A stretch of DNA of 63,623 nucleotides, the filler included, from Hausera hauseri (lineage: Eukaryota), in assembly GCA_046269625.1 (NCBI GenBank). It is 11 parts of 11 records of this genome, joined end to end, with 100 filler letters (N's around TTAATTAATTAA, not from the genome) between each part and the next. Parts side by side here need not be neighbours in the genome. Positions count along the whole stretch, not along the records: positions 42,883 to 46,949 come from JBJURY010783090.1; 10 more parts are not named here. One strand, 5' to 3'. The notes below the pieces were generated by a model. It saw nothing but the letters and a program-made list of their open reading frames with translations, was not told where the DNA came from and made no database searches. Positions within the stretch are counted from its first letter, which is position 1; each line of letters begins with the position of its first letter. Made by a program: the position numbers and the translations under genes. Shown here one piece after another: positions 4,961-58,894 of the stretch.

Positions 4961-5095
4961 TGAATGGTATCTTTCTGGGAGTATTATTAAGTCCAGGAGG
5001 TAAAACGATGCGGCTTTTGTTAATTGGATTAAGGTTAATGATCTATTACTTATACTATAGCCCTTAAGATTATTTGGGATTTGAGGTGTCTGGGG

Positions 5096-13980: not shown

Positions 13981-14019
13981 TGCATTTTCTGACTTCGACC
14001 CACAAATCGATTAATTATG

Positions 14020-19200: not shown

Positions 19201-19466
19201 AGCATATAACTTTACTGGAGTTTGAGCATTGTTCACTATTCTTACAGGTATTCGACTTAATGCTACTCGGGTCAATATATTGCACAGTATTATATTAGGG
19301 TTTAGCGTTTCTCTTGGCTCGAAATATACTGGTAAATCGTTGTCTTGACAGATTTGTGCAAATATCAACAATTCCGTTCTAAACGGAATGTTTTCATCTA
19401 CTGGAATCCAGACTTCTCCGGATTCTCTTTCTTTATTAACTTTAGTTCCTTTTATCGGTCCGAGCT
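16254..19466 (-). mobile_element. Ty3/Gypsy pol (family A): post-protease spacer, RT, RNase H, integrase
   Basis: RT DLQYGYWQ, MPFG, AYLDDV; RNase H IKTDAS..GIG, ELETLAV, VTDHKA, HVDADALSR; integrase H.DS..GH..CEVC, MDIVGP, LTDRGRNF, VERMN, GPY. Multiple stops. Confidence 0.95.
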
Positions 19467-23939: not shown

Positions 23940-24960
23940 GAGACTTCTTCGAGAAGAAATTGATGCCAAAAGAATTCCAGAAAGGTGACAACGTGGAAAC
24001 CTTTATTGGAAAATGTAAGAGGTACTTCGTCTTCATAAAGATGTCCGAGTCGGATCGGGAAACTGCGGTCCAGTGCCTGTTGGCGGACAAAGAACAGGAA
24101 AAATACCAGCTGGTAAGTCAGAAGATGAAAGGTTACCAAAATCGGTTGAGAAGGGCCTTTGGAAAACCCATAACGCTGTGCGGAAATCTGCGGAAAGCAT
24201 TGGACTACAGACTAAATGGGATCGAACCGGCCGCCTACTTCAACAAAATCGAACATCTGGTGAAGGTCATCCTCAGCCACAAAATAACAGCGGAAACTCT
24301 AACTGAAGAACTGATGATCCACTGTTGTAACGATCCAGAGATGAGAAAAGAAATCTACCTCAGTGACGAAAAAAAAAGATAGAACAAATCAAAGCGAAAA
24401 TACAAAAAGTCCACGAAGTGGCAACAAGGACGAAAGAGATAAATACTGTCAGCGAATACAATAAAGATGGTCGACGGAGTTATCGGTATGTGGTAGGGCA
24501 CAAATTTGCCAAACCAAGACAGGAAAGAAGGGATTTCAAATTGCACAATACGCAGGCAAAGAGGATGATGAAATACTGGTCATGCCAGAAATACGGGCTT
24601 ACAAGCCGGACATGCAATCTTTAACAAGTACCAAGATGTTTTGGTTGCGGGAAAGAAGGATATATTAACAGAAATTGCCCGGGAAGAAAACCTATAATGT
24701 GCTATGGGTACGGTCAACAAGGGCACATAAGACAAAATTGCAGAAACATAAAATGCTATAGATGTCACAATAGAGAGCACAAGGAAGAAGAGTGCTACAC
24801 AAATTTAAACAAGAGCAGAGGAGGACAAAATACGTATACAGACAATTTCAAACGTGCGGGTTATGGTCAGAAAAGATATGGAGAGAGGGTGAACAGCAGG
24901 CACGCATACGTTGCAAATATTGCCGAGGACTATGAAGAATCCATCACAGAATCGACAAAC
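23940..24960 (+). mobile_element. Ty3/Gypsy gag pseudogene with ~4 CCHC zinc knuckles
   Basis: PKEFQKGDNVETFI; knuckles WSCQKYGLTSRTC, CFGCGKEGYINRNC, CYGYGQQGHIRQNC and CYRCHNREHKEEEC. Confidence 0.8.
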
Positions 24961-25620
24961 CCAATTAGTAAAATCCATAAACAGAATCCCTTTGTGGTTT
25001 CAAAAATGTTGTCAACATTAAGACCTTTTTGTGGCTTGTGGAAGACTCAAAATTTGGATGGCAGTCTCACCTGCACATTTCCATTTACTTGACTTTCTCT
25101 TACTTTCTGGTATATAAAGCGACAATGGTGTTTCATCCTCTGTAACTGCTTGTCAGAAATTGATCACCTTCATGTTCAAATTTGGTCAGATTGGCTTGAC
25201 AGCATTGTAGACGATTTTGGTACATCTCGTTAGTTAAAAAGTGGGGAACGAATCTAGATGATAGTTTTCGTATGCCTAAACACTTCATCGTGTTATAGAG
25301 AGAATCTTTGCTAACATTCAGCCTTGTTGTAAGCTCCCTTGTCGTAATCCGTCTCTCTGATTTGATAATTTTTTCCATTAACTCTTTTAAGCACTAATTT
25401 CGTGAGGATGACCTGGACTCTGATCAGCAAACACTGATTGGCCACCATGTTTGAAGTTGGAAATCCACCTGTAGATATTTCTAATAGCTGGACATTCATC
25501 TTTATACACTTCCTGTAATTCTTTGATTATTTCTTGATTGTTCAAATCGTTCAACACGCGAAATTTGATGACACTTCTCTATTCCACCTCTTCAATCATT
25601 TTTAATTTTACTGAATAATC
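24960..25620 (-). mobile_element. mariner transposase 5' fragment abutting/inserted at the gag end
   Basis: RSVIKF..EII.ELQEVY, RRITTREL, KLSSRFVPHFLT (WVPH motif), VTEDET. Confidence 0.85.
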
Positions 25621-26389: not shown

Positions 26390-28237
26390 ATGTGTAACAT
26401 TATTTGCATCCGTTGTAACTGGATATTTATAAATATGTCGTACGCTTCGACGTTAATTATTTGTTTTGCAGGAATTGTGCTTTCAACAACAGCTTCATTA
26501 TCGGAAACGTCTATTAAATCTAATTCTTTATACGAAACTCTTTGTGTCATCTTCGAATGTATTCATTCTCTTGGTCAATGTGGTGCTTTGAAAATTCTTC
26601 CTGTTGGTAACTTAACAAATGACGAATGGCCAACAAAAACTACTATTGCTAAACGGTGTTTTGCGTAAGTCAGAATATTGTTTGGTCCCTAATATTATAT
26701 TTCTTTCAGCTACGTTCGTGGTACTTACAACGCAAAAGTTAAGGAAGGAGCTTTAAAAGCACTCGCTGGATTAGCGATGGGTGAAACTGATAGTGATTTT
26801 TCACCAATTATTATTGAACTTCTTATGCAAACATTTTCTGTAAGGGTTAATTTTATTTTCACAATTTCCGTCCGTTATTAGATGAAAGATCCACTTTTAC
26901 ATCGGAGTATAGCTCAGACAATCGTTTGTACTGTCATGAGAACCCATTCACCTACCAAAGGTCGTTGGTATTCACGCCGTTTTGGTAGTCCAACGGAGCA
27001 GTTGAAACATTCCGATAGTGGAATATCAACTAACCTGCAATTAGTTCTAAACAAAATTCATGACATTTTAATGCAAAGCAACAACATTAGTAGACATAAT
27101 GTTACCATTTGGTGTTTGTCTATTGTTCAGAATTTGGGATGGGTTCCGAATTTTAATTTGTCAATGTTGCATTCACGGATATTGAATATGTTGGGTGATA
27201 AAGATGAAACTACACAGGATACAGCTTCCCGAGTGCTAGTTTCGATTTATCAACATAGCCAACCTGAAGAGAGACGATTAATGTCGGAAGAATTTACCCA
27301 AGTTATTTTATACGGCCAAAGAGGTCGTATTAATGTTGATAATAATTTTACAGATACTAAATTACAATCACTGACATATTTCGTTAATGGTGACAAACGT
27401 GAGTTTACTGTTCTCAGTGAATCCGATCTGAGTGCAACAATTAATAATATAAAACAAATAGCCACTAGTGGACAAATGAAATTGCATCAGGAACTCATCA
27501 AATTACTCCAAATGAATTTAGCAAAAATTAGCCAATTCATGGATCTCAGCAATTTCGTATTCCATTACATCAATTCACATAAACCAAAATCGGCTATTAA
27601 ATCACACATACATGGACTCGATCAAACTATACATAACAATATTTTGACTAAGTTGTGTGATTTAATACTGAGTGAACCGACTTTCAGTAAATTACGTACA
27701 GAAGAACAAATGGAATACGCTGTCGATTGTATTCTCAAATTATCTAACTCGATGCAGGGTCATCGAAGTTATCTCCAGTCGATGAAAAGACCCGGTGAAC
27801 TCGATGAACGAGTGGTATATTTTCCGGAGACGTTTTATGACGAATTTATACAAATGACCGACGATGAATTCCAGAGTTACCAAAATGCACCGACAGCGTC
27901 TCGTACCAAAATAAAAATATCGTGCCAACCCTTAATTTTATTGCTACCCGTGGGTGCCTTGAGCGACAACGTTAGGACAACCTGCACTGAATCAACAAAA
28001 AGGTCGGTGAATTTGCTATATTTCTATTTCGTTATAATTCATAAAATTATGCCAACCAAGGCCATACCAACCGAAACCATATTCCACGTCATAACACTAG
28101 GTGCTAATCTGAAACATCTTATAATCAATGCTATTAAAAATACTCATCCACAAATTTCAGATTCAACTTCTCTTCGATGCATAATGCAATTCATATGCAA
28201 TTCAGTATTTGAGTTCAGCCCGTCTTCAACATTGTGA
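26390..28237 (+). CDS. ECM29: ECM29-like (proteasome adapter) gene segment with short introns; 3' part of the ORF not recognisable
   Basis: KVKEGALKALAGLAMGE, RHNVTIWCLSIV and LGDKDETTQDTASRVLVSIYQ..LYGQR match ECM29 HEAT repeats. GT-AG introns at 26665-26709 (45 bp) and 26840-26881 (42 bp) restore the frame. Confidence 0.7.
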
Positions 28238-31384: not shown

Positions 31385-33480
31385 GTATCGTGAAATTTCT
31401 TCGATCCACCGGTTTAACCTACATGTCGGGTTATTTGCCCGTCCTTTTAACGTTGTAACAGTTTGTGATCGGTAACTATAATAATTTTCTGTCCGTAAAC
31501 GTAGACATTAAAATGTCTTAAAGCTTCTTTTATGGCTAGTGTCTCTAGTTCAGTAACTGATTAGTTTTTCTCCGCTTTCTTAAGCGATCGCCGTCCATGC
31601 GTAATTGGGTGTTCCAACTATTTATCTTCCTGTTTCTGAGCCAATTCGTAACCAATTCCCTCTTTACTGGCATCTGTTTTAATTATAAATGGTAAATTAA
31701 AATCGAGATATATTAGCACTGGTTCACTTGTTAGAATTTTATTTATTTAATCGAACGCTTCCTGTTCAATATCAGTCCATTTTCATTTGATACCTTTTTT
31801 AACAGACGATATAATGGTGCATTTATTTTCCAATTATCCGGCACATAAGTGACATAATATCCACATAAGCCTAACCAATGTCTTAATTCTTTGTGAATCT
31901 CGGGTTCCATACAATCCGATATTTTGTTTAATAAAGATTTATCTGATTCTGACCCTCCTTCTCCAACTATATGTCCGAGATATGATACAGAATTTTGTGC
32001 CAATTTACATTTCTTTGGGTTCTGATTTTAATCCTGCCTGTTCCAACCGCATAAGAGTGTCTTCGATGTCCTTTAGGTGTTCCTCTCCTATCCTTGATGC
32101 TATCATTACATTGCCTAAGTATGCGAATGCATGATCGAGTCCCATTAGCATTTTATTCATCATTCTGGTGAAGATAGCTGGGCCGGTAGTTATACAGAAC
32201 GGCATAACGTAAAATTCGTAAACTCCATTGTGTGTTTTAAATGCTGTTTTATAACGATCATCTTCTTCAATTTCTACTTGCCAATATCCTGATTGTAGTT
32301 CCAGTGCGGTAAACCACTTTGCTCCTGATAATCGGTCTAGAGATTCTTTTACTGATGGTAGTGGAAATGAGTCTTTTATTATCAGCGTGTTCAGGGATCT
32401 GTAATCTATACATAAGCGATGTTTTGTGGTATCCTTTTCTTGAACATGAGTATTGGCATGTAGCAAGACCGATAGCTTGGTCGTATTATATCAGCCTTTA
32501 ACATACGTTCTACCTCTTTGGTTATTTCGGGCCTTAATGAAAGGGGCGTTGGGTACCATTTAGGCATCTTTTGCTCTTCCAAGTCAATTTTGTCATTGGA
32601 GCCAGGTTTCTTTTTTAGTGGAATCGTTAGTCTTAACGTTTTTGCTCTGCCTATATCTTCCTCATTTTGGGCAATAATCCACTTATATTTACATAATAAT
32701 TCGTAAAATTGACAATATGCTTCGGGTGAAAACTTTGTTTCTACATGAGGTGGAAACTCGGCATATTTTAAGATTTTTCTTTGATCGTTATTGCCGATAC
32801 CTTATAAGTATGACCCAAGATAGTATTAGCATACAATTTTACAGAAGTGGGCGTATTATTTACTAATCTGACTGGTACTCTTCCTGTCACTACTCTTGTC
32901 AAAATGTTACTAAGCATGGTATTTAGATTAATTTCGTCTTGGGGTTCAAAATATACTAGTTGGTCGTCGTCTTCGCGGATTTGAGCATAAATTAATATTT
33001 CGGTTCTAGGCGGAATATTTTCGTCGACGGGGATCTATACTTCTCCTAGCTGTCTTTCTTTCATTGTTTTAATTCCTTTCGCTGGTCCCAATTCAAGTAG
33101 CTTTTCAGTCTTCAAGTTTATTGCGATATTGTGTAATTGTTTCAGTATATCGCAACCTAACACTACATCATCAGTTAATTGATCCATTACGGCAAACTCG
33201 TGTCCAAGTATTTGGCCCATTAACTGAGCTAAGGGACTCCATTTAAATTTCAGTTTAGATTCTTGCCCGAAAGCTCCTATGCTGCCTGGGTCTGACGATG
33301 ATACTGGCTGTAGTTGTTTTCGTAATGTCGGCGGTATTAATTCTAACTTGATGAATGATTTCTCTGATCCGGTGTCGATTAAGGCATAGACTTCCCAATC
33401 TTCAATAGTAACTTTTGTGAAGGGTCTCCCTTCCATAACTGTTCTATAACAATTTGACACGTCTGCTGTTCGTTTAATTG
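31385..33480 (-). mobile_element. Ty3/Gypsy pol (family A): protease, spacer, RT, RNase H (pseudogene)
   Basis: GRPFTKV..YALIDTGSEKSFI..VVLGCDIL; RLCIDYRSLN, ELQSGYWQ, AYLGNV (mutated YxDD); IKTDAS, ELETLA. Very similar to 17526-19466. Confidence 0.95.
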
Positions 33481-34081
33481 TAGAAATCTTATGTCCGTTT
33501 ATCGTTATTTCTGGTAATGAAATCATGTTCTCGGTCGGCTGTTTCAGTTCTTCGTTAGGGTATAAGTCGTTCATTGCTACGCTACCTGCATTGCTTCTAA
33601 TTAATGGTTGTTGAATTATTTGGTTTTGAAGCAATTTCATTCCTTGTGTTCCCCAAACTGTTGATTTTGTCTCTATATTACGATCTATTCTCGGCCAGTA
33701 CAATATCCTGTGGTCACCTTCCGCTCGTCGTTGATTAGTGATCTGCATTTTCTTTAATACTCCGTATTGTTTTGTTCCTTCATAAGGGTCCTCATAGCTA
33801 AAAGGTCTTCGACAGAAATCCGATTTGTATGACACCATAGATGTTCTATCGCAATCGTCGTATAATGGAGCCGTTGGCGGCATGATGGGCAAAAGTGCCT
33901 TAATTACTGAATACATTTTATGTCTATTTTGTTTGAGGATTGCTTCTCCTCCCTTAGGCTCGTCATCATCGGAGTCATTTCTTCGTGTTGTTAATTTCTT
34001 AGCTTTGTGTTTCAATAGAAACGTGGGTCTTGCTCATTGTTTATAATTATGATAGCCGACGTGGCGTTCAACGTCATTTTT
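33481..34081 (-). CDS. Linker between glycoprotein and protease, in frame with both; contains PTAP and LYPNEEL
   Basis: Part of ORF 33035-34015. Only two in-frame stops (TAG at ~34083, TGA at ~34035) separate it from the glycoprotein tail. Confidence 0.6.
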
Positions 34082-35930
34082 CTATCGGTTTTCGTCGTAT
34101 GCTTTAAGCATTTTGCCGAACGATGTGATGATTGCGGTTAAGATCTTGCAGGAAAATCCTGTTAGCGTAAAGATTTCGTACCCGTTTATAACCGCTTGGA
34201 TTACCGCTTTTACTAGTTGTACCAAGAAACAGATTGCTAAAAATCCAGATGCGGCTTGTCCAAAAATGAAAAATCGTCCCCATATTTTGTAGAATATTTC
34301 TGTGGTTACCCGTTGGTAATGGTTTGCACCAAGTAATGATTCGAATTTAGCCTAATATCGAGTATCGTCAACTACTGATGCCATAGCTCGATTTAATTCG
34401 TGTGTTCTCTGTCGTGGGAAAGCAAGGAATTGTCGAAAAGCTTCGATTTCTTTAGGCCTGTAAATACCTTTTTGAGATGTATCCTGAAACTTATCATCAA
34501 TAATTCCTTTTGCTAAATTAGTTCAAGTTAGTTTTTAGGAATGATAGTAACGCCTTTATTAGGTAGGCTAACCCAATCTGTTTCGCTACGCCTAAACATT
34601 GGTTCACCCAGACTTGCTTTGCAATCCTTTACGATGGTTGGTTGCGTTGCATTATCAAGCAACACTCTAGTGAGAGGCATGGATAGATGTGGAGTGTTTT
34701 GGTAGATTACAGGGAGCTCTTGTGTGCATTGTTTTTCTTCGACATTAATTGGTACGTCTCTTTTCTCTCACTCGTAGGTCAGTAGGACCTCGCGAGTAAC
34801 TCGCCGAAGATTCCTTCTCTCATGGGAATGATCGGTGAAGCTAACTCAGGGTTCGCATAAATAAGATCTAATTATGTCCTCATAATTTCCGTATTTAATT
34901 TGCAGTCGTTGGTTATCATTTTGTAATATAGTTCGGCTATTACGACTTGTCCTTTTTAATAAAAATAATCGTCTCGGTTTTTTAGATAATCTTCGATTCT
35001 AATGTCTTGCGTTTTTAAGTTGTAGGTTTTCGAGCTTATCTCCGCTTCTGCGACGAAGAACTGTTGGTAGTTAGTGGTGAACATTATTACTTCGCAACGT
35101 GAAGTCATTTCCCTTTTTATGAATTTCAATCCATACTGATCAGAGATTAATATCGTAAGTGTATAATGTTTTGATACGTCTTCATGTGCTCTTAAATTGA
35201 TGTCGGATTTGTCTACGTATCGTTTTCCGGTAGTTTCAGGTCCTTAGTCTTAATGAAATTACTGCCTTTTGCAGCGAGCGGTTCCCATATGACGACAGAA
35301 CTTCTGAAAGCACACGTTTCGTCTTGTATGTGACATTTTGGTTCTTGGTATAGAGCTTAGTAACGCAATGGAACATTACCTTCTGTACTCGCATTTCTGA
35401 TTCGTAAAAGTCTACTACTACTACAGTTGCTTCCAGACCTTTCCAGTGTCGTATTCTGCTCCGCTACAATGTCCGTTGTGCATTTCCAGCCTTCCAACTA
35501 CTATTTTATATGCTATGATTACCTTTCCGGGCTGCATTTCTAATTCGATGCTATCACATTTTAGTCTTCCCGTCTCTCTGGCCTGTTTACAATGTTGCAT
35601 TTTTAAATTCATGGGAATTGGGGGGGGGGAAGGTCGTTGGTTTGATTATAGAGGAATTTCCGTGCATTAGTCCACAGTGAAAGATACTATGAGATCGTCT
35701 CAGCATACATTCCATGCCATCCAAAGATATCAACTCTTGTTGTTGGTATAGGAAGTAGCTCTCTTTCTTTGTTTCCAATTTATGTTGTCTGGCATCCTCA
35801 CATGATTCTAAGTCCATTAGGGAATATTTCTGTCCAAGTTTAAATCTATCGCAATCGTAAACGGTAACGACGCCCATGTGTTTTATCAACATCATTATGG
35901 TGAGTAAACTGATTAACCAATTAAATTCAT
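34082..35930 (-). pseudogene. Chuvirus(Jingchuvirales)-like fusion glycoprotein (env), copy A
   Basis: Signal WLISLLTIMMLIKHMGV; VYDC..KYSLMDLESC..YFLYQ..ECMLRRSHSIFHCG; GHCSGAEY...VW; GIYRPKEIEAFRQFLAFP; TM region KIWGRFFIFGQAASGFLAI..KAVIQAVINGYEIF..GFSCKILTAI. Confidence 0.8.
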
Positions 35931-36249
35931 TCTTTCGGTTGTTATTATCCATTGTCGTCAAGTTCCGTATGACATCTCCTAGTCCTTTATTAGTATTCCT
36001 CTTGTCTTCTTCCTTGTCAAACAATTTTGGCCAATTTACTTCACATGGTAGCTTCCTAGATGCTTTTCGCGCCAAACTTGTAGTTCGATTTAGTTCATTT
36101 TCTTGATTTGGAATTGTCTTAATTGCCAAGAACAATAATACTTTTCTTAACTCTTCGGTGGTATTTTCCACCATAATTTTCTCTTCTATTGCGTCGTCCG
36201 TTAGGCTGTTTTTAGACAGCTTGATACGCGAATTTCTCACTGTCCTAGC

Positions 36250-38226
36250 TGCGTTAAATATCGCCTTTTTTATCGTCTAATGTATCCCCTCGAAGGCTTG
36301 AATAATTTACGATACGTATTAAATTCTTCATTAACTCGTTTAACTCTTCATTGTTGGTGCTAAAGGTAGGAATCTACATTTGCCTTAGTTCTCTAAATAA
36401 TTCTCTGTTTTATTTGATTTCTTCTCGGGCTTTCCTAGGTCTTCCGACCGGGCGTTTAGGCTTTGGAAAATTGGTTATCATCCCGCTTAGTGGTACTAGA
36501 TTTTTGTCATATTGTTTCTTGTTTTCATCTGTCTGTAAATACTCGAAATACATTGCAGCGTCTTGTACTCTCATGATTTGCCCTACTCATTGTTCCGTTT
36601 TGGCCTTCCGCGTGGCCTCTTCTTTTGTCTGTTCGTTGGCTATTATTACTACTATCCGATTTGTTTCATCGGGAATAATTCCGACGTCTATTAACTGTTC
36701 TAAATCATCGAGTATTCTTCCTCTAAAGTAAAATCTGTAATTTAGCTCATTTGTGCCGCCATTGTTTAGTAACCATTCTCTTACGTTTTTTACATAGGAA
36801 TATGTAGTTAACTCACATTCTTTTTTTCCCATCCACTCAGATGATATTATTATTTTCATTGTTACCTCCGGTTTATCCTTCAAGATTTGCGCATACTTCT
36901 TTATTAAAAGTTTCGGCACCGTGTTGTAAATTATGTTTTCACTGGATAATTTAGTCAAAGTCGGAATGAGTTTTCTGAGCTTATTTTCAGTCATATTCAC
37001 ATTAATTGATTCCATCAAGTCCTTTTGGGTTAACGCTGAGTCTAGGAGCATCTCCACATTGAATTTCCTGTTCTGCGGATACATTTCTATTTCATCTAGG
37101 TGTACTGGCGTTACCGGGTTTTCAGCCGTTATTTCTTCTAAGTAAGCATCCCATTCTAGTTCATTCCCAATATCTAGGAGTCCATAGTCTACTAGAGCTG
37201 TGTTTGTTTTTTGCACAATTCCTCGAATTTTTTTTAGTCTTGGTTGCATTTCTTTCATCTGCGTAGTTCGGAAACCTATTCCGTTTCCACAAGCATATTG
37301 AATCTTTTTCAGTAGTTGGCCTAATTCATTAGAATTGATGAATCCTTTATGGTGATAATCAGTTAGTTCAATAATTACGTCGCTTTGCCGTCTGTATACG
37401 AATTCTTGCTTATTTTTGATTTCTGATTCGGTAAAAGCGTATTTATTTCGGTAACCTTTAAACTCTTGCTATTTCATCTAGCCTTATTTCTCTTTATTTC
37501 ATTCGGATGCACGTTTCTTCTACTTGGTGTAATTTAGGCATTAACTGCCTCATCTTTTCATCATTAATCTCCGCCATTTCTACCAATACGTATGCTAGCC
37601 CATACAGTTCATTTATAATTTTTGAGTGGGAATCCATTGCGTCTAGCAATTTCTTTATAAACTTAGATTTTTCGACACTAAGACTTTGGTTGTTTCTTAT
37701 TTTTGTCAATTCGGTATGGTAATTCTGATCCGTACCGGCCATCCATTCTCGTGGTTTATGCAAGAATCTTACTGCTTCTATTAGGGCTGCTCTATATTCT
37801 TGGCAAATATCTAAGGTTTCGATATCCTGGATTAAAATCACGTCGATAGGTTTCTCTGTTAAATGTTGGATTTCTTCTAGTCGGATGCTTCTTAACCTTG
37901 AGTAAAAATTGCAAGTCATATTTTGCTTTTCTGTAAAGTTCGTTTCTTCGATTATTTTATAGATCTCTTCCAATGTTGTCATTTCTTGTTTCTTCGTCAT
38001 AAAATTTAATTGTCGTAATGATTCGAATCGTGTCCGGATGTCTATTTTTGCCCGTATGGTGTTTAAGTTATGTGCAACTTTTTCTAGTTGCTTTTTTACA
38101 GATGGTTCGCTTTCCGAAAATTCTTCCTTACTGTCTTCTATTAACTTACTTAATCTCGTTATTAATTCGGACCATTCCGACTGTTGGTTGGCAATTATCG
38201 GTTTTGCTAATATTGCCTTGTCTAAC
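36250..38226 (-). pseudogene. Decayed 5' coding region of the family A element: helical ORF, ubiquitin-like domain (36859-36640), AT-hook-like motif (36431-36463)
   Basis: NVREWLLNNGGTNELNYRFYFRGRILDDLEQLIDVGI aligns without gaps to ubiquitin [48 protein letters not shown] lies in the same frame after one TGA. Confidence 0.6.
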
Positions 38227-38619: not shown

Positions 38620-41600
38620 AGTCAACACCTGGAGTTTTTTTCATAATTTGATGGCATTTAAGAATTGTAATATTCTCGCTATAATTCATGAAGAAAGTGA
38701 CTTTCCCAAAGCTACTGATGATTCGTTACTTCAGAAGCTTATCAGTTCTTGTTCCAAACATCCCCGATTCATAAAAGCAAAAGCTGATATTTCCAAAGTA
38801 TTACTTTCGTTTGGTTTCTCGTAGAATACTGTTCATGTTTAGATGTTTGGTATTCAACATTTTGCTGGAACTGTCCATTACAAAATTCAAGGTTTCCTGG
38901 AGAAAAATCGTGATGCATTCAATGCTGATCTTATTGATCTCATTCAAACTTCGAAAAACGAATTTTTGCAAACTCTTTTTGATAAAGACTTTTCTGTAGT
39001 ACGTTTTTTTAATGTATAAATTGTTCATGGTTATAACTCTCATTCGAATGGTGGGACGTTCTACGTGGTAATCTAAAACAACATTTCGATTTAGGGATTT
39101 GAAACGCGTAAACGATCTCCAACTCTTGCCATTCAGTTCAAAAGATCTCTCGATTCTCTTCTAACTATTTTAAAGACACGGCAGCCTTTCTTCATCAGAT
39201 GTATAAAACCGAATGAATTCAAACGTAAACAAGATTTTGATCGTTCTTTATGTCTTCGACAACTTCGATATTCTGGTATGATGGAAACCATTCGAATTCG
39301 TAAAGCCGGATATCCGATTCGGCACCAATTTTGCGACTTTATCGACCGTTATCGAATACTTATTCCTGGTGTTCCAATTAGCATTCAATGCAAAGACAGC
39401 CGAGAAACTACGAAACAGATTTGTATGAAAATTCTAGATCCGAAAGGTTATCAGGTGGGAAAAACGAAATTATTCCTCAAAGATTCTACGGATATTTATC
39501 TGGAAGAATGTCGTGACAAAATGTTAACAAATTCTGTCATAACTATTCAGAAAACGTGGAGAAGATTTTTCCATAGACGTAGGTTTCTTCGGCTTCGACG
39601 AGCAGCAACAGTAATTCAAAAGAACATTCGGATGTATTTGGCAAGAAGAAAATACCGCAAGGTAATCAAATTACTATGAAATATGGCTAATAAAAATCAT
39701 AGCTAAAAAAAGGAATATCTTTGTTCCAAGCAACTTACCGAGCTCGAATTGCAAGCCGAAAGTTGAAAGATTTGAAGGGTTTCATTAAAGGAGTTCAAAG
39801 ATATTGCAGAGGATTTCTTTCTCGACTGAGATTAAAGAAAAAGCGTAAAGGCATTGTCATAATTCAAACTGCTGTTCGAAAGTATTTGGCTATGAAGAGA
39901 TATTCAAAGTTGAAGGATGAGGTAATTTTTGAAAATATACGTGCTTTTTTCGTTTATTTTTATATTTGAAATGTGACTCACAAGGGAACTACCACTGTTT
40001 TAACAAACGCCACCAATTTGCACAACTTCTCTTCGCTGTTACTCATGCTATTAAAATACAAAAGATATTTTAAAACACCTACGTATAGTTGTTCAGAGCA
40101 CTCACGTATTTCTTCACACCAGCCAATCATTATCCAGCAAATGACTTTTCACACAAGAAATGTACTTTATGCAGCGTTAGTACTATTCGATACAAGCCTT
40201 AACTAGTCGAATAATTAGACGGATACTAATTTGTTCGCCAGAACATCGGACAAACATATTTGTTAAGTCCTTCTCTGTGTTAGGGAGGAAATTGAACAAG
40301 TGCACAATGACGTAAAATAGGAAAACTTTTCTTACAAAATTTATTTTCATATCATTAAACATCATAAACTTTAGTACTCGTATAAGTCATTTTCATGGAA
40401 TAATTTGACAATATATGAGACCTATTTTGTCTAAAATTTCATTTTTTTTCTGGTTAAAATTTGTATAACTAATAAAACATAATTTCTCGCATTTCTCAAA
40501 ATTATTGCAATATAGAAACAGAAGCTAATTGAAGCCTCTGAACTTCGTAAAGAAGAAGAACTGTTGTTAAAGAAACAAATGGATGAAGAAAAAGCAAAAC
40601 GAGAAGCAGAAATTCGTCATCAAGTAAAATCTTATTTTCAAGAAATATTCCTTCATAATTCCCTATTTCTTTATAGAAAAGACTCGACGAATTAAAAGAC
40701 ATTTCTACTGCTGAATCATTGCAGAAACAGCAAGAGAGCAGTGATAAAAAAAGACAAATAGCAGAAGCCGAAAAACGACGCTTTCGACCCGTGGATGAAT
40801 CAGAAATGGTGAGAACAATTGTGCAATTAATAATGCATAGGATTTATATTAAAAATTTACGTCGTGCTCCATTATGTTTCTCAATACGCCCAAATAATAT
40901 CTTACTCATTGTGTTGTATTTAGTTGGATGAAATATTTGGAGATTTTGAAGACCACGGTGGAAATAAAAACACATCACTTTCCAATGGGCCGATAGCGTT
41001 CGAAGATTTAGAACAATCGCGAACGAATGCCCTGAACAGTGTTGATAAACTGTTCGTCTCCAATATTCCTGACTATTTGAACTCTGTTCTGGACGAAGAT
41101 GTATCGGAATTCAAATTTTCAAAATTCGCTGCAATGTACTTTCAAAACGACCAGGACGCGGAATTCTCTAGAAGACCGCTAAAAAGATCGTTGTTGTATT
41201 ATCCAAATCCGAATGACCAAATGGCAGCACTTGCAGTGTGGATCGTTATATTACGGTTTATGAAAGACCTACCGGAACCGATGATAAGTAAAACGTATTC
41301 GTCGAAAAAAGACAACGTTCCAATGATGACAAAAATCTATCAATCCTTGGGTAGAAAATTCAATCCACAAGATATCCAATTGGCCGCAGAAGAAGCTGAA
41401 CGAATGGTGCCATTTTATAACTCAGTTCAATATTTAACCGAATATTTCAGGGTCAAACTCCGTACGAAAATAACACACTGCGGTGCAACAAAAAGAACAT
41501 TGTTTCACTAACTTTGAAAAAGAAATCGAAGTTTACCGAAGAGGTCGTTAGTCAGTTGAGAAGTCCTGACAATGCAGATATGCATGGTGATGGAAAAACT

Positions 41601-42379
41601 ATCCTCGACGAAAGTCCAATCACAAATCTGGAAAAACTACACTTTATTATTGGAAACGGAATTTTGAGACCGCAGTTGAGAGATGAAATCTATTGCCAGA
41701 TCTGCAAACAGATGACCAATAACCCCCGTGCCGAAAGCGTTAGTCGAGGTCTGATTCTACTAAATTTATGTATCGGATGCTTTGCACCGACGGAAAAGTT
41801 TGTCCGGACGTTGCGAAATTTTATTCAAAGCAACTTTGCGAATTATTCGACATTTGTCGTAAAAAGACTTCAGAGAACGTTTTCTAATGGAACGAGAAAC
41901 CAGCCGCCAAGTTGGCTTGAATTGAAGGCGATTAAGAACAAAGAACCAATCATTTTGGCTGTAACATGTATGAATGGAAATACGGAAACAATATTTGCCG
42001 ATTCAGCATCAACGGCAAATGAGTTGTGTTCGGTGTTATCGCAAAAGATTAATTTGAAGGATAATTTTGGCTTTTCGCTTTTTGTTGCAATTTTGGATAA
42101 GGTTCGAGTTAAATGATATTATGAAAAATCATCTTTTGATTTTTTTACTAGGTTTCTTCACTCGGCAGTGGGAATGATCATGTAATGGATGCTATAAGCC
42201 AGTGCGAACAGTTCGCAAAAGAGAAGGGTATTCCTGAATCGAAAGCTCAATGGCGGCTTTTCTTTCGGAAAGAAATCTTTACTCCATGGCATAATCCAAA
42301 TGATGATTCATTGGCTACAGATTTAATTTACCATCAGGTTGTGAGAGGGATAAAGTTTGGGGAATACAGATGTGATACG
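38620..42379 (+). CDS. MYO7A: Myosin VIIa (partial, multi-exon): motor C-half, IQ motifs, coiled coil, MyTH4, FERM start
   Basis: [110 protein letters not shown]. Introns include 38798-38842, 39662-39702, 40624-40676, 41407-41450 and 42102-42151. Confidence 0.93.
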
Positions 42380-42882: not shown

Positions 42883-44560
42883 TCATTAACTACCATATCG
42901 GAAAAAGAGTACTACGTTTATCAAGAGTCAGAGTTTGTGAAAACTAAGGTGAAAGAATGTTTCGTTCGAAAAAATCATTTTCATTTTATTTGTGGATATT
43001 GATATCGAAATTCAGAAATACTCGAACCAACTACCCCATTCGAGCCACTTCCTATAAGCAAACGAATATGCATAGAGGCTTTTGTGACAAAACAGAATAA
43101 TATTGGCAATATTAGACTGAAAGCTTAGAAAGGAAAAATTATTGATAAAAGAATTTTCGTGGCTAGAACAATTGATAAGACGGGATATTGTAAGGTTGAG
43201 TCTTATAATATCAGTGGTCAAATTTTAGATAATATAGTGGCTATTGAAGATTATCAAGTCGAGCTGAGAGAATACGATGCCCTCTTCGAGCTATCTTCAG
43301 AAAAGATGATGACATTTCCTGAATGTGACTATTATAATAAAGAATGTGACAATGTGGAATCAATTATGTCATGTGAAGTCGCTAGAGATCAGTATCAATT
43401 AGCTTTATTAAAAATAGGAAAGTTTAACGAAACAAAAGGACAAATGTCCAAAGAAGAAATATCTAGCAGCAGACTAGACCGAGTATCGGATATGATTGAG
43501 ACTCCAACCATAGTATATTTAGCAAATCCTCAAGACGGAATAAGATTAGAAAGTGATACTAGGAGATGTGACCACACAGTATTTTGAACAAATTATAAAG
43601 GGATATTCTTATATACAGCAGAAATAACAAAAGCTAAGAGGAAAATTGACAAATCGGAAGTGAAGCCTCATCTTTATTTCGATAATAGGATTGATTTATT
43701 TATCACTTCCAGCAAGAAAATATCTATGCTATGTATCGAGAGATAATATTAAACGATTATAAATTGAACAGAGAGAAAACTAGAAACCGAATATAGCTGT
43801 CAGCGATAACGGACGGAATAATAAAAGATCCAGCCGAATCCCCCGATACAGATGGGAAGTTTGCCCGAACAATAGGTGATACGCTTGTAACTTTTGAGTG
43901 TACAAAAGTAACTGTCAAATTAAGACCAACAACCGACTGTACCATAGAGTTATGTATTTGGTACAAAGAAAAACCACGTTTCTTGCAACCAATCACCCGG
44001 ATATTATTAGATCCGGCAGAAAAACCATATGTACATCAAAATTGTACATATACTATGTCGCCAGCATATCGATTAAGCGACAATTTATGGATAAGGATGC
44101 CCAAAAAGGAGCAGATTACTCCACCTCGAAGGATTAGTTTAATCAATTTGAAGACCGAACAAACATACATGCCATTGACAGATTTGGTAAAGATGGGTGT
44201 GTATTCCGAACAAGATATGGAAAATCATAGAAGAATGATGATGTTCCTTTAGCAGAGACAGAAAATTCTAACAGAGATGGCAATGAGAGTGTTAGCTGAT
44301 CACACCGGGAAAGCTAACTGGAAAAATTTGATGGGACCAGAATATGCCAAGAAAATAGCTAAAGATATATTTGCGACCGAATGGGGATGGTATATTTGGT
44401 TTGGTCAGTTTAATTCTGGATGGCTAGGATTTTATTATATCTTTGCCTTTATGAAAGCAATTCTCACAATGATAACAAAGGCTATGGCATAAAACAAGCT
44501 GCTGGATGTACTTGGAATATCATATATGCATTAATTCCATCAGTTGCTAGTTGTTGCTAG
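42883..44560 (+). pseudogene. Chuvirus-like fusion glycoprotein (env), copy B
   Basis: YYVYQESEFVKTKVKECFVRKNHFHFICG; IDKTGYC; GKFARTIGDTLVTFECTKVTVKLRPTTDCTIELCIWYKEKPRFLQPITRIL; GVYSEQDMENHRRMMMF; WGWYIWFGQFNSGWLGF..KGYGIKQAAGCTW. Confidence 0.82.
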
Positions 44561-46949
44561 AAAGACGCAGAATGGAAACAAAAAAATAAGAAAAGGGATC
44601 ATTCAAATGACAATAAGGAGTCACCTACTATAGAAAGAATATGGAAAACGAAACCTAAGTCACTTGAAAATACTAAGAAAATGTGGAGCCTAATTACAAC
44701 ACAAAGTAAAATGAAAAGAACGTTATTCTCAGACATTCCACAAGTAAAAGGGTGGAATGAATACCTTCTGGAACATCAGCAATATATAGATATACACTGT
44801 TCTAGTGATATCGATAACTCTGATCCCAAGTGCATGGAGCTAACATTTTACCCATCAGCCTCAAAGAAAGATTTGATAACCAGTATAGTCGGTGGTAAAG
44901 TAATACCAAGAACAGTGACTTGGATCGATGGACACCCTATTACAGCGATAATTGATACGGGAGCATCAGCTTCAATGATTTCTCGGAAACGATTACCAGA
45001 ATCACTAAAGGAGAAACTACAAAAACCAACAGAAGCCATTACAAATGTTGGAACCTTTGGAACTAAGGTACAAGTAAAGGATTTAATTAAATGTGAAACT
45101 AAATTTCTTAATCAAAAATTTGAACAAGAATTTAGAATAGCAGATGAATTGGTAGCAGAAGCCATACTTGGTTGTGATGTACTAGCGAAATTAAAAGATA
45201 TGTGTATAAATTTGGAAACCCAACAAATTCAGCGGTTAAGAAAAATGAAAAATGAAAAAAAAAGATACGGTATCTATCAAAGAAGATATAATGATACCAG
45301 CTAGAACAGAAGTCGTACTCAAAGCTATAGTACAGAGAAAAGATGAAGGAGAAGTTTATATTGAACCGAATTTAGGCTTTATGGATGAAAATGAATTATG
45401 GATGGCTCACATAATTGATAATATCCGAGAACAAGTGATTGTTCGAATAGCCAATGTCTCAAGTAAACCTAAACTTCTTAGGAAAGGAACCCGGATCGCC
45501 TATGTGTACATTATGAAAGATATAGGCTATAACGCAATAGAAGCAAAGTTTTCAACTGCACAAGAAATATCCGAATTTGTGGAAAAACAACGCCAAAAAT
45601 CACCAGAAAAATGTGGAATACGATTCGAGGATGAATCAATGAATAAATTAAAAGATCACCTTAATAAAAGTAAGAAAGTAGTAAAACTCGCAAAAACTCC
45701 TATCAATTGGAATGACTATGATTTGTTTGGAGAAAACAGTACATTAGCAGATAAAGAAAAAGAAGATATAGTCAGAATATTACAACAGTAACGAGATACC
45801 TTCGCAATAGATGAATATGATATGGGTATAATACCCGTTATCAAACATGAGATCAAATTAAAACCTGGAATGGAGACTCCTATTAAAAAAGGCCATATAG
45901 ACTCAATTATGATAAAAGAGAAAAAGCTAAATAAATAATAGCTGAAATGAGACAATATGATATAATTAGAACACGTAATTCGTCATGGGCAGCTCCCATT
46001 GTAATGGTACAAAAGAAAGATAGATCGATCAGAATGTATGTGGACTATCGTGCTTTAAATGAAGTAACAATAGATAATACTTATCCCTTACCCAGAATCG
46101 ATGAGTTATTAGACAAGTTAAAAGATAAAATGTTATTCACTACGCTAGTTCTACAGAAAGGATTCTAGTAAATAGAAGTTCAGGAAAAAGATAAACAGAA
46201 GATAGCTTTCGTAACTGCGGACTGACATTATGAGTTTAATCAAATTGCTTTTGGGATGAAAAATTACCCAGCAACGTTCCAAACAGCCATGTACATAACT
46301 ACATTGGATGCTCCACACATAACGTGTTATGTGGACGATGTTATAATCGCTTCTACGATTCTAAGCAATATAAAAAGCATCTCAAGGATATACACGAAAG
46401 ATGTGCATTGCTTGGAATAAAAGTGAGTCTTAAGAAATGCTGTTTCGCGCGGACCCAAGTAGATTTTTTAGGTATACAGTGAGCAGAGAAGGCATTAATC
46501 CTCGAATTGAATAAATAAAAATTCAGGTTCCTAAAACAGTTAGAGTCCGAAAATTTCTTGGTCTTACAAGTTATTATCGAAAATTTGTTAAGGACTACCA
46601 ACAAATAGCCTCTCCGCTGCATTCGTTATTACAAGAAAACTCTAAGCTCGTCTGGACTCAAGAATGTCAAAAAGCGTACCAACAGTTAAAGGATAACTTA
46701 TTAGCTCCGCCAATATTGGCTTATCCAAACATGTCGAAGCCATATTTCTTAGCTACAGATGCGAGTAAAGTCGGAATCGAAGTTGTTCTATTACAAAGAG
46801 ACGATCAATGACACGAACACTTAATATCGTTTGGAGGTAGAAAGCTAAGAAAACCTGAGAAAAACTACTCCACAATCAAAAGAGAATTACTTGCAATTGT
46901 ATATGCGTTGGAACAGTATGGACAGTATTTGTCGGAGACTAAACCAATC
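44561..46949 (+). mobile_element. Ty3/Gypsy pol (family B): linker, protease, spacer, RT, RNase H (pseudogene)
   Basis: TAIIDTGASASMI..ILGCDVL; SSWAAPIVMV, YVDYRALN, YPLPRIDELLD, CYVDDV; LATDAS, RELLAIV. Close relative of 7069-7908 (shared LDAPH before YxDD). Confidence 0.95.
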
Positions 46950-53660: not shown

Positions 53661-56600
53661 ATGGCCGTCATTAATTCATGTGCGTACAGTGAATGGATAG
53701 AAGTTTCAATCAATAAAACAGCTGGAGTTTCCATAAAGAATAGTAACCAGTTATTATATAAAAGTGGTTCTCTGAATAAACAGGCAGGTTTAAGAAAGTT
53801 GGAACTTCTACGATCTGTTGCAGAAGCTTATGAGTTTCAAAATAAAATAATTGAACATTATATAAAAGAACAACGTGATAACTTGCCAGTTCAAAGCTCT
53901 TTTAATGCAATGAAATTTAGTGGAGAAGATAAGAAATGTAATATTGATTTTAATGATTGCCAGAGTTTTAATGTTAATTTGGTAGCAGATCATAAAAATT
54001 ACATTATTAATTCTGAGCCATCAGTAACAAACGAATGGAAAATTTTAATTGTTCAACGCAAATCAGACAGACAAAAAAAGCGGTTGGTAACGCTAATGGA
54101 TGACTTCGAAAGAGATATACACATTAGAAGAGTGAGGAGTTCTAAAGAATCTAGCCTAATAATTAAAATATCTCGCAGTACTTGCTCATCAGATTCCAGA
54201 AGTGCTCCAATTGATCCTCAAAATGGTGACGAAGGTGGAAACTTGTCTATGTGTAGTTACACTGATGTCAGAAAGTATAAATGTCCGATCAACTTTTATC
54301 TAAGTTCTGACATCAACGATTCTGGTAAATATTCATCGGAATCAGAACATGTTAAAGTAGGTTCTATTGCCAAAAAACAATCGATTAATATACGAAACAG
54401 TGATATTAACAACTTAAGAAATTCCGAAGAGAAGTCGATTCAGATAAAATGGCACGATAATCGAGACAATGAGGTAATTTTAAATTTTTATTTTCGTCCA
54501 AAAATGTATTCCAATATATTAGCTGAATTAAATTGTCTAAAATTTGAAGGACAAGTAGAAAGAAAATTAAATCGAATAAAAGGAAAAAATTATAGAATAA
54601 AAAAGGTTTTGAGATTTAAGAGAAGTAGTGAATTATCTGTTGAAGTTTCTTATATTGATACATGGGTTGTTTTATGTCCATTGAGCAATTATAAGCATTT
54701 GAAAGTTTATACGTTTTCTAGCAATATATCATCGCAGTTTATTCAAAAATCATGTCTAAATATCATAGTAAACGACATTCAAGTATTTCAAGTTTTAATA
54801 TTAACTTATTATTATACTTTTGATATACAGCTAGTCATTTCTACTATTCCTATTAAAGCATTGATAGATGTCTATAAACAGTTGGATAGCGAAAAAACGT
54901 TTGCTAATATAAATGATGATGATATTCGATCTATTTATAAGATGTTGGTTAAAAGATTGATTTGGGCCGAATGTCGTCAATTCTATATATGGGTACTTTG
55001 TCCAACCAAAGTCGTTTTAGCGGAACTCAAACATGGCAGAAATGAAATACAAAAGTCTGTTGACTATGAGAAAATTGTAAAATACTCCAATCATTTTGAG
55101 ATGTTATTTAATGGGTCGAAATATTTGGTTATTGTTTTAGAATTTTATCGATTTAAGATCCCTTGTGAAATAATCGAGGTACGAATTAAAATGACTGAAC
55201 CAGGAACGATGTATTTTGCTAAATCTGTTTCATATGCATTGAAATATGTATATTCGAATGAAATCATTCATTACAATATCATATTAGAAAATGCCTTTCT
55301 TAATGAGTCCATAATAGGGAAAGTTGGTGATTTCGGGTTGGCAATAATACTGAAACCAAGCATTGAAAAAACTCTTATTATATGTGGTACGTCGAACTAT
55401 ATTGTTTTGGGAACGCTGAGAAATTTACCTTATTCCTATAAAATTGATACGTGGGCATTAGAATGTATAAAATATATGTTTCAGGTTGGCAAACTTCCAT
55501 TTGAAAACTATACCCAACACGCGACTTTTGAAAAAATCAGAAATAAAAATATTAATGTCCAATATATCGATATTGATAGTCAGGAAACCCTACTCACACT
55601 GTCGGACGCGTCGAAAGACTTACGGAATAAATTAAAGACCGTTTTAACATTTCTGAGAAATTTTAAATTATTGATAAAGATGGGTGGAGAGAAAGGAAAG
55701 GTGTCAGAAATAAAATTGATGATAAGGTTACCGTCTTTGCAAGCGTGGTATGTTTCAAGGTTAGGGAAATTTTTTCCTGTTATCAACAATACCTCTCAAA
55801 TAAATTTTATCGACGAGTATAAACCTATCTTTCTGAAATTCGTTGAACGAAAAGGAGCAAGGCTGTTACCGATCGGTTCTGAAGAGATTGTTGATGGTGA
55901 TGTTAAGATGACACTTGTTATGATATGGATAATAAGAACTGAGAAAAATTCAAATAGCATCAAAATTGAATACGATGATGTGGTCACATTGGAACTTGGA
56001 TCAGTGCAACATAAGATCCTGGATAAGGATGTCGAGAGAAATGAAGAATTATATATTTCATTCAACCAAGAAATCGACAAAGTTCAGGCAAAATTGATAA
56101 TGGCCAACGTCAACATCCAACGAGCGTCATTTAGTAAGATTGAGAAAAAATCCGAGCAAAATTTAAAAGATGTTGGTAATCTGAGCCGCAAAGCTATCCA
56201 ACGAATGGAAAAATTAAACAAAGCTTGGAGTGTATTGAAACAGTGTCTCCATAATAAACATTTTGAACTTGAAGATGCATTAAAAGAAGCATTGACGTAT
56301 TATGGAGATTACCAAGAAATCTTAAAAAACATCGAAGAATTAACCAAAAAATTGGATAAACTTAAATTTTCTGGTGGATTTTTTCTCAATCTTGTGATTC
56401 GTCATAATGTTGATGCTGAAAACAATGATAGCGAATTGAAAAAGAAAATAGAAGAAATAGAGACTATTGAAAGCATTTGTTCAGAAAAACAACAAACAAT
56501 TCTAAATCTTGAACAAGATAAAGTTACGTTAAAAAACAAACTGCAAGAAATGGAATGTCGAGTTCAAGTTTTGAGTAATGAGAGAATTGATTCAGTATCG

Positions 56601-58894
56601 AAATCTGAAAAAACATTTGAAGAGTTTCAGATTTCTAATCGTTACAAAGATGATGTCATTGTTGGTTTACAATCAGAAATGGAAATTATTAAAAAGAAAT
56701 TAGACGAACTAGAGTTATTATATTGTGACTCTGAAACAAAAAACAAAAGGATAATTGATGAACTATCCAACAAAGAATCCATTGTGTTAGATTTATCGAA
56801 GAAAGTAGACGACAAGAAAAAGATAATTGAAAATATGTACAGCATCATTCATAAAAATAAAGTTCAAACCGAAGGAATCCTTCAGAAAATTATAGATGCT
56901 CTTGAAAATCGATGCACAACGTTCAATTGTGTGATTCCAGATGAGCAACTTGGAGAAATATCCTATGGCCTTAATTTTGAAGAAGAATTTTATCATGAAA
57001 AATCTGTTGTTTTAGTTTTTCGGACTCTTTATAAATTGTTGTCAGTCGCTGATAAATTGAATGATGAGTTACTTAAGAAAAATGAAGATACAAAGACGTC
57101 CGAAAGTCTGAATAATGAACTTTTGCAAGCTTCAAACAAGATAGACATACTCTTGCAAAAGTTAGTAACCATTATATCGGAAAATAAGAATTTGATACCG
57201 GAATCTTTGTATGAAGAAAATGAAGGATTCTTCGAAAAATTTGATAATTTAGAATTGTTGGTTCAAGGTATATTAAACGAGTTACGCTCCAAAAATATTG
57301 AATTAACAGAAATCCAAAATTATTGTAAAATTGTCATGGATGCGTTAGACTCAAAAAGTTCTGTTCCCGATTTTGATACCAATTTAAATTCATCTGTGAA
57401 GCAACTTTTTGAAAAACTTAAAATTGGTTTGGCAACAGCAACATCGGAAACTTCATTGAGAGATAAAGAAATTCAGAATCTCCAAAGTATAAATCAGTCT
57501 CTCGAGGAAAAAGTCGAAAAATCTCAATCCTTTTTAATATCTTTCTACAAACAGTTGATTAGTATATTTCATTTAACAAATACAGACTTAGACTCGAAAA
57601 CAAGTCGAAAGTTAATTATAAAGTCATTAAAAGAATACGTCAAACTTATGTGTAGTTTGGATAATGAGGTTTGTGAATTGAGATATAAATTACAAGCTAC
57701 TAAATTAGAATTAGAAAGGTCGCTGAGTGGAACTCGTGATTCCCAGAGTTAGATAACTTAAGAGAATCTTCAGGTAATAATCGTAATCGACTTATTTCTA
57801 CTCGACAAGATCTTGAAAATTCTTTACGTCGTCTGAATGAAGTTGCTGATGAAAAGGGTCATATCGATGAAGAAAAACAAACATTGAGGAAAGAATTGAA
57901 AGAATTAAATGAAAAGATTAGTTTACTGAAGATTGAATTCGAAAGGCAAAGTAAAGAGAAAGAAAGATTAGAAATACAATTCGATGAATCTTTAGAAAAA
58001 GTCCGACGTAATCATACCGCATTGGAAGAAACTTACAAAAAAGAACTGGAAAAGCAACACGGTTACCAAAAGCAATTGGAAGAACAAATTGTTTCTCAGC
58101 GCGAGTCTAATTCACGTCAGATTACTGAGCGAGAACATAAAGCAAATGAAAAATTAGAACAAGTTTTGAACCAAAGTGAGGAACTGTTGACCTTGAATCA
58201 CCAGTATAAAACATTGCTTGATCAAGCAAAGCATGAGGCTCAAAACGTTACAGAGTCGCTGAGAAAACTGGAAAACGATTATGATATTATAGTTAAGAAA
58301 GTAACAGATATTAAATGTGATAATAAAAACTTATCAGAAAGCTTATTAAGTGTGAAGATGTTAGAAACTACATCTATGGAGCGTGATGATTTACAAAGAA
58401 AAATATCCCAGATGCGATTCGAAAATAACAATTCAGTAGAATCATTGGAACAAATTTCATCTAATGAAGACACATTAGAAATCTTTACAAAAAATGACCA
58501 AAATACTATATCAGACGATTTTATGGGTGATTCCAACATAATCCCTGTAAATGATGGTCTTTATAACGCAGAGAACTTAAAAATTGACTCTGATAACAAT
58601 GCCGTTTCTGACGATATTGATGAAACCTATTATCATTTGGTGCCGAAATGCATATACACTGAACCAATTGATTATCCTGTGAATGAACAAATCGATACAG
58701 ATATTATCAGTTTACCCAATCTGCCCGATTTCATGCCATCTATTGTAGCTAAAACGAAAGTATTGCAGTTACTTGAGGTTCCCATTAATCTCGTTAATAA
58801 AATGTTAATGAAAAGAATAATGCTATCTTCGGTATATGTTGGACAATTGATTGAAATGACTTCGGGTGATCTCATAACTATTCAAGGTGACTAA
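53661..58894 (+). CDS. Intronless mosaic ORF (1363 aa plus a frameshifted continuation at ~57745): EGF-like bits, PLK-derived pseudokinase, polo-box remnant, CH fragment, spectrin repeat, long coiled coil
   Basis: FSG..KCNIDFNDCQS; IIHYNIILENAFLNE..KVGDFGLA..ICGTSNYI..IDTWAL..GKLPFE; LPSLQAWY..NNTSQINF; LKFVERKGARLLPIGSEEIVDGDVKMTLVMIWII; LNKAWSVL...LEDAL. Confidence 0.7.

Follow-up and report, generated by a model that had tools for sequence, protein, structure and literature searches.

Nematode elements known as NERV reportedly contain one continuous gag-env-pro-pol open reading frame (ORF), and the Anakin elements of mosquitoes, attributed to Dezordi et al. in 2020, are said to be BEL/Pao retrotransposons with a chuvirus glycoprotein placed after pol. 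Anakin is also named in PMC12440569, and Chary and Hayashi (eLife 2026, PMC13524379) cite Sacco et al. 2022 for NERV as a metavirus with flipped env/pol order and an envelope (Env) resembling RNA-virus glycoproteins. They describe GAG-ENV-POL gypsy errantiviruses with an env of HSV/gB type (HSV, herpes simplex virus) in Nematoda, Bryozoa and Platyhelminthes, which are not one clade; nine Platyhelminthes elements are listed, six of them from Schmidtea mediterranea, and supplementary file 2 has no rows under two flatworm names that were looked up. These elements have an env at most 2 kb upstream of pol, a gag at most 5 kb upstream of env and an ectodomain of cysteine-bridge class C1-C3; intact ORFs are a rule for inclusion and not a trait of the lineage. 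In giant planarian gypsy elements, Burro/GYPSM1, env lies in frame between gag and pol and has matches to mononegavirus fusion glycoproteins, according to section 7 of the article (Arkhipova and Yushenova 2019, PMC6431247). Here we analyze the contig at positions 42883-46949 of a 63,623-nucleotide window of Hausera hauseri DNA and conclude with high confidence that it is the middle of a decayed Ty3/gypsy retrotransposon, in which a gB/chuvirus-type env stands directly before protease, reverse transcriptase (RT) and RNase H; the active form was probably translated into a single polyprotein in gag-env-pol order, whose gag would lie upstream and outside this contig. Direct observations carry this reading: the domain order, the frame shared by Env tail and protease, the decay of the copy and, in the nearest relatives, unbroken ORFs running from Env through protease (PR), RT, RNase H (RH) and integrase (IN), with CCHC knuckles upstream.

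The window is made of 11 contigs joined by N44-TTAATTAATTAA-N44 spacers. Positions 42883-46949 are one entire contig (copy B, + strand), and a second family lies at 31385-38226 (copy A, - strand); since contigs were joined end to end, the "opposite strand" noted in the preliminary description reflects only the orientation in which they were joined. The contig contains neither end of the element. Copy B reads as follows, with lengths in amino acids (aa) where given.

42883-43791, + strand: N-terminal half of Env, gB/chuvirus-type (PF24664, E 1e-7; 30-37% to fused relatives over ~280 aa; 6 stops)
43797-44474, + strand: C-terminal half of Env to the membrane anchor (PF24664, 135 bits; 372 HMMER matches; 1 stop; frame different from that of the N-terminal half)
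44477-44557, + strand: Env tail, 27 codons, in the protease frame (alignment to the copy A tail; fragment P0027)
44558-44560, + strand: TAG stop, one of the 15 stops in B and most likely a product of decay
44561-44908, + strand: linker of 116 codons, fast-evolving, with no gag features (Pfam, blastp, comparison with copy A)
44909-45259, + strand: aspartyl protease, DTG at 44954 (PF00077, E 7e-12)
45261-45884, + strand: protease-RT spacer, at the same place as the dUTPase-like domain of Burro (32% to copy A, 0/300 shuffles as good; 36% to P0173)
45887-46467, + strand: RT, YVDD present, with 4 stops and frame changes (PF00078)
46470-46949, + strand: RT thumb/connection and RNase H, truncated by the contig end (PF17919, PF17917)

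The preliminary description had proposed a second family with the same order of glycoprotein, protease, RT and RNase H, and Pfam confirms this order in both A and B. In copy B the matches are to PF24664 Monjiviricetes_fusion (43797-44489, 135 bits, E 3e-39; weaker over the N-terminal half), RVP (E 7e-12), RVT_1 (E 5e-17) and RT_RNaseH_2 (E 4e-32). The contig begins about 50 profile positions inside the glycoprotein, with the signal peptide off the contig, and the Env ectodomain is broken; the membrane anchor was positioned by aligning relatives, the hydropathy cut-off not calling one in B itself. Copy B is heavily decayed, which the preliminary description did not mention: over 1,351 codons there are 15 stops, and the frame changes 6 times, once between glycoprotein body and tail. 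In P0027, a fragment 89% identical to B, body and tail share one frame, so this frame change is particular to the B copy. That the tail belongs to the glycoprotein is indicated by its alignment with the tail of copy A (equally good in 1 of 300 shuffles) and by weak alignment just behind the transmembrane (TM) segment in 10/10 fused relatives tried, and the earlier statement that it lies in the protease frame, with a single TAG between them, holds. The protease-RT spacer, conserved in A and the fused relatives, nevertheless gave no dUTPase match in Pfam or PDB. Word-based protein searches with the Env piece and the protease of B returned nothing, which is weak evidence, and HMMER later produced the 372 matches; two viral contig scans yielded no relative, the protein atlas no usable Env match and PDB sequence searches nothing for Env or spacer.

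The relatives show what the intact form looks like. An HMMER search with the C-terminal half of B's Env against 1.84 billion representatives gave 372 matches, the best 150 of the 372 being considered here; the Pfam scan covered 25 of these 150, plus cluster members. Among ranks 1-19, ten proteins extend more than 150 aa past the Env match and all ten have an aspartyl protease in the same ORF (weak in P0034, E 0.002); the remaining nine stop no more than 100 aa beyond it. An unbroken Env-PR-RT-RH-IN ORF is present in seven proteins (P0024, P0032, P0115, P0150, P0173, P0175 and P0178), and P0038 reaches RNase H. At lower ranks, among the matches listed, stand-alone glycoproteins of 600-720 aa predominate. 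Integrase follows RNase H in the seven fused relatives and in a sibling contig of family A, and the resulting pol order, protease-RT-RNase H-integrase, fits Ty3/gypsy. P0026 has a weak Bcl-2 match before Env (E 1e-3), P0175 is 4,844 aa long with ankyrin repeats and P0121 has DUF5641 before the glycoprotein. Tandem aspartyl protease domains (at least two) are apparent in P0025, P0028, P0030, P0031, P0032, P0040, P0173 and P0175, P0175 reaching as many as 7 Pfam stretches; one protease domain each is seen in A and in B. P0024 (HBK71150.1), a complete env-pol retrotransposon polyprotein, is deposited under a Flavobacteriaceae metagenome-assembled genome (MAG) and is most likely an animal contig mis-binned there.

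The same proteins locate gag. CCHC knuckles occur before Env in 5 of the 149 scored (P0024, P0031, P0034, P0040 and P0150), with a Retrotrans_gag match in P0040 (E 2e-4), and within 400 aa after Env in 0/21 long-running matches (P0123 dropped, having no blast match). From Env anchor to first protease motif the distance is 124-194 aa in 9 of 10 measured and 360 in P0173, four rows being not measurable; it is about 178 aa in B and 289 aa in A. A short distance from TM to protease is thus the norm for this group, and gag lies upstream of env rather than between Env and protease. The preliminary description had called the linker, put at about 110 codons, too short for a normal gag. Its length stands (116 codons between the TAG and the first protease strand, the Env tail and the protease being about 350 nt apart), and the expectation of a gag at this place was mistaken for this group. 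Because the B contig starts inside env it cannot show gag, and the puzzle of the missing gag dissolves.

Copy A and two further contigs of the window belong to the same comparison.

31385-38226, - strand: copy A, second family, with a likely coiled-coil ORF, ubiquitin-like domain (36629-36877), AT hook, signal-like stretch (35916), Env, protease (33038-33424), spacer, RT and RNase H (Pfam and comparisons)
14949-19466, - strand: family-A sibling, RT-RNase H-integrase, then signal-like stretch (16268), FN3-like ectodomain, stalk and TM (15057) (74% nucleotide identity to A over 1.7 kb)
6853-7908, - strand: RT of B's sister family, apparently internally deleted, then a piece that is likely an integrase tail, followed by a signal-like stretch (6942) (RT tree)

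The domain order of copy A is that of copy B, and its tail is likewise in its own protease frame, with two stops (34084 and 34036) at other places; A is decayed as well. Protease and RT had been described as clearly diverged between the families, which agrees with identities of 31% and 39% and with the lack of any blastn match between A and B. Amino-acid identity lies at 27-39% in 9 of 10 pieces (Env 27-38%, protease 31%, spacer 32%, RT and RNase H 39%), so that Env and pol, whose divergence the preliminary description had proposed to compare, have diverged to a similar degree. Against 300 shuffles, eight of the ten pieces beat all; the tail was equalled by 1 and the linker by 60, a likeness not beyond chance (z 0.9). 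Third-position identity is 29-53%, compared with 28% at random, and fourfold sites are too few; with third positions this close to saturation, the ratio of nonsynonymous to synonymous rates (dN/dS) is not measurable. Upstream of Env, the ubiquitin-like region of A has a Pfam ubiquitin match below the cut-off (E 0.017), 19 of its 20 PDB matches are ubiquitins, at only ~3.5 bits per repeat, and P0173 shares the region (E 2.5e-5). The upstream pieces gave no Bcl-2 match at E<=3, and for the upstream ORF all protein atlas matches are below 0.9 and the AlphaFold model is unusable (pLDDT 35). At 3998-7908 (- strand), B's sister RT, with RNase H and integrase apparently deleted, is followed by the signal-like stretch and several ORFs with no Pfam match; one of these, of 366 aa, resembles by eye a DEDD exonuclease remnant, with no database match.

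B's RT scores best on env-fused proteins, at 46-54%; the 21 env-less gypsy proteins reach no more than 44%. In the RT tree (33 rows, with neither an outgroup nor named reference elements) B is sister to the RT of contig 1 within the env-fused group, behind three starred branches, and A sits on a long unplaced branch. The Env tree (55 rows: 14 fused, 8 near, 30 stand-alone and 3 window pieces) groups A and B together among pol-fused Envs, apart from the 30 stand-alone glycoproteins, with unstarred support (SH-aLRT 83/90). The fused relatives branch in a similar order in both trees. We conclude that the env-before-pol layout is old in this group. The preliminary description had taken recurrence in two diverged families as evidence of an ancestral architecture rather than nesting or misassembly. 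It was right that the architecture is real and old and is neither nesting nor misassembly, as intact single-ORF relatives and the published layout bear out. Recurrence in A and B alone does not prove one ancestor: the support that unites their glycoproteins is unstarred, and A and B as RT sisters are rejected by the approximately unbiased (AU) test (p-AU 0.019).

Env may instead have moved sideways between two gypsy lineages in the host, so that A and B would share the layout without one env-bearing ancestor, an explanation we consider unlikely but worth serious weight. It would account for Envs of A and B in one subclade beside RTs that do not pair, and for a pol of A that finds no firm place in any of three trees, RT, RNase H and integrase (the latter two with four ids left out by design); exchange of env inside one host order is described in PMC13524379. 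Against it, the AU test does not reject a position of A within the env-fused RT clade (p-AU 0.23), env-fused proteins are the first matches of both A's RT and the integrase of its sibling, the ubiquitin-like region of A recurs in P0173, Env and Pol differ to a similar degree between A and B (27-38% and 31-39%), and in the Env tree fewer than half of the columns were filled by the rows of A. Common descent of the layout in A and B is plausible.

If the gag-env-pol polyprotein worked as its order suggests, Gag and the accessory domains would be translated first, and an internal signal sequence before Env would then thread the ectodomain into the endoplasmic reticulum (ER). A hydrophobic stretch is present before Env at 35916 in A and in several relatives. 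Signal peptidase would cleave before Env, and the Env anchor would bring the chain back to the cytosol, where Pol would be made tied to the membrane behind Env and would be released by the element's own protease; several relatives contain two or more protease domains. That entry is mediated by class III fusogens is established. Under this proposal enzymes and fusogen would be packed in one budding particle with no gag-pol frameshift, and the element might pass between cells.

The TAG at 44558-44560 could be read differently, as a programmed leaky stop giving mostly Env alone and Env-Pol by read-through, for which the gag-pol stop of gammaretroviruses is a precedent. Its position exactly at the end of the Env tail would suit such a signal, copy A has stops in this zone too, and P0026 and P0037 end 31-38 aa past the matched part, through natural stops or cut contigs. 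Against this, the decay rate of B predicts 1.5 stops between Env tail and protease (probability of at least one, 0.78) and one is seen, so the TAG is nothing special; the two stops of A are at other positions, ten fused relatives run through the point with no stop, and one unitig of sequencing run X1 differs from the window at this exact place. The codon is most likely a decay stop, and we regard programmed read-through as improbable.

Still less probable is an ENV-GAG-POL element with a very short gag in the linker, or one that has lost gag altogether. Two mites have ENV-GAG-POL elements with a short GAG, as PMC13524379 reports, and no gag was found before Env in A. The 116-codon linker, though, has no knuckle, no conservation, no Pfam match at E<=3 and no blastp match among 176 proteins, and in five relatives the knuckles stand before Env. 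Burro carries its gag at the N-terminal end of an ORF of 4,873 aa, ahead of several accessory domains (PMC6431247, section 7), so far upstream that the 2.3 kb available in A may not reach it.

Several points weigh against the contig being the middle of a gag-env-pol element. It has no LTR (long terminal repeat), primer-binding site or integrase, the last lying past the contig end, and the 2.3 kb before Env in A contain no CCHC and no gag Pfam match. A search with A's RT returned 21 generic gypsy proteins, 0/21 with Env, and these 21, drawn from 128 candidates, make a small env-less set, so closer env-less gag-pol relatives could be missed. An env-fused clade excluding B is not rejected (p-AU 0.078), which means that B's place in it is not forced, and the RNase H tree does not settle where B belongs. 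Read support belongs here as well. Two sequencing runs contain parts of the contig; no RNA run was listed, which says nothing about expression. In X1, 12,036 unitigs fall on it, most 85-95% identical; a large number of diverged ones match Env as well as pol, which is what a repeat family would give and speaks for the main reading. The preliminary description had pointed to 44400-44950 as the interval to examine for read support, and the outcome is mixed: 30/30 bins are covered, but summed depth over the linker is 394-507, against 1,187-37,506 elsewhere, and among the pieces listed (13,399 more lie beyond them) none spans the junction by 31 letters in both directions. One unitig links 44517 to 44873 through other sequence, its short side only 21 letters, and another piece aligns to 44559-44775, differing at 31 places. 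Unitig depth does not measure copy number, and X1 may itself be the source sample; these data are therefore only suggestive, and the junction of B has no independent read confirmation; the pattern fits a high-copy family with a fast-changing linker. That a chuvirus glycoprotein fossil was nested by chance beside a gypsy pol, or that a repeat contig was misassembled, is barely credible: short contigs, the depth dip and the want of a bridging piece among those listed would allow it, but two families share order and frame, unbroken ORFs occur in other records and B's Env groups, with unstarred support, with pol-fused Envs away from the stand-alone ones.

In several relatives and in a sibling contig of family A, a second, FN3-like membrane protein follows the integrase. 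At 14949-16300 (- strand) the integrase of the family-A sibling continues in frame into a signal-like stretch, and then comes an ORF with an FN3-like domain, a Thr-rich stalk and a C-terminal TM, a pattern also seen in P0024, P0032, P0173 and P0175. At least two further hydrophobic stretches lie after the integrase in these four and in P0115 and P0178, and a C-x-x-L-x-P motif of FN3 type is present in 4 of 8 proteins checked and in the family-A sibling contig. With a profile of four post-integrase ectodomains, EphA2 chains came first (E 0.003 and 0.07); the part matched is presumably an FN3 repeat. Pfam gave no fn3 match for four post-integrase pieces, and a domain model was low (pLDDT 47), its fold search returning nothing at E<=0.001 and only weak Ig-like sandwiches. 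The B contig ends in RNase H, before any such part, and B's sister family has its signal-like stretch after the likely integrase tail. It is tempting, though doubtful, to suppose that in the clade's polyprotein two membrane proteins bracket Pol: ahead of the protease the gB-type fusogen, and behind the integrase its attachment partner, receptor-like and of FN3 type, with signal, ectodomain, Thr-rich stalk, TM and tail. Together they would form a two-part entry machine as in herpes- and paramyxoviruses. Section 7 of PMC6431247, a term search of PMC13524379 and one literature listing contained no such post-integrase protein. If it were an attachment factor, an LTR retrotransposon would here possess an entry system made of two proteins, of interest to specialists in envelope evolution.

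Other contigs of the window hold features of their own. At 53661-58894 (+ strand) an unbroken 1,363-aa ORF with a kinase domain, a weak calponin-homology match and a coiled coil is followed by a second coiled-coil ORF and looks like a host-gene mosaic; the 451-aa ORF at 26882-28237 (+ strand), with a PqqF/insulin-degrading-enzyme-like piece (E 3e-11) amid unrelated sequence, is possibly another. A Penelope-type RT with a weak GIY-YIG match (10210-11760, - strand) lies beside a tandem array at 12356-13981 with a period of ~184 bases. Gag-like ORFs at 23940-25092 (+ strand) have knuckle-like Cys motifs by eye, no Pfam match and, on their contig, no link to any Env. The host is an animal; its myosin gene at 39095-42340 (+ strand), interrupted by short introns, encodes motor, IQ, MyTH4 and RA/FERM parts and could serve to identify the host phylum.

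Compared with the described systems, copies A and B share with Anakin the glycoprotein family and its setting in an LTR retrotransposon, but Anakin is BEL/Pao, and A and B have gypsy-type RT relatives and the glycoprotein upstream of the protease. With NERV, as characterized in PMC13524379, they have in common an env before pol that resembles RNA-virus glycoproteins, though the host here is probably no nematode. The likeness to the GAG-ENV-POL errantiviruses of that paper lies in B's predicted gB/chuvirus-type env (PF24664, 135 bits) directly upstream of pol, within 2 kb. Those elements are intact, whereas A and B are decayed, and B with its 15 stops and 6 frame changes would not be listed under the intact-ORF rule, the comparison being one of descriptions rather than sequences; the passages searched contain no discussion of a single polyprotein or of a post-integrase membrane protein.

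Burro, taken from PMC6431247 section 7 and compared without its sequence, resembles A and B in likely working. The Env tails of A and B stand in the frame of their proteases, with stops intervening, and the two parts are continuous in 10/10 long top matches; a ubiquitin/SUMO-like domain upstream of env is weakly seen in A, below the Pfam cut-off; a conserved protease-RT spacer, itself with no dUTPase match, stands at the place of Burro's dUTPase-like domain; and relatives have Bcl-2 before env (P0026, weak) or ankyrin in a 4,844-aa ORF (P0175). Unlike Burro, the scanned pieces of A and B have no Bcl-2, MATH, BIR or ankyrin match. Burro exceeds 30 kb and the contigs here are 4-7 kb; the article cites an HHpred likeness to F-type gypsy Env, and the match here is PF24664. 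At stake biologically are the cutting and packaging of a membrane-spanning gag-env-pol polyprotein and movement between cells, questions for which broken copies are poor material and the published intact flatworm elements better. Our analysis adds two decayed families to a known, uncommon layout: contig B joins the gypsy elements of gag-env-pol type as a new but decayed member, its layout already published and its likely working Burro-like.

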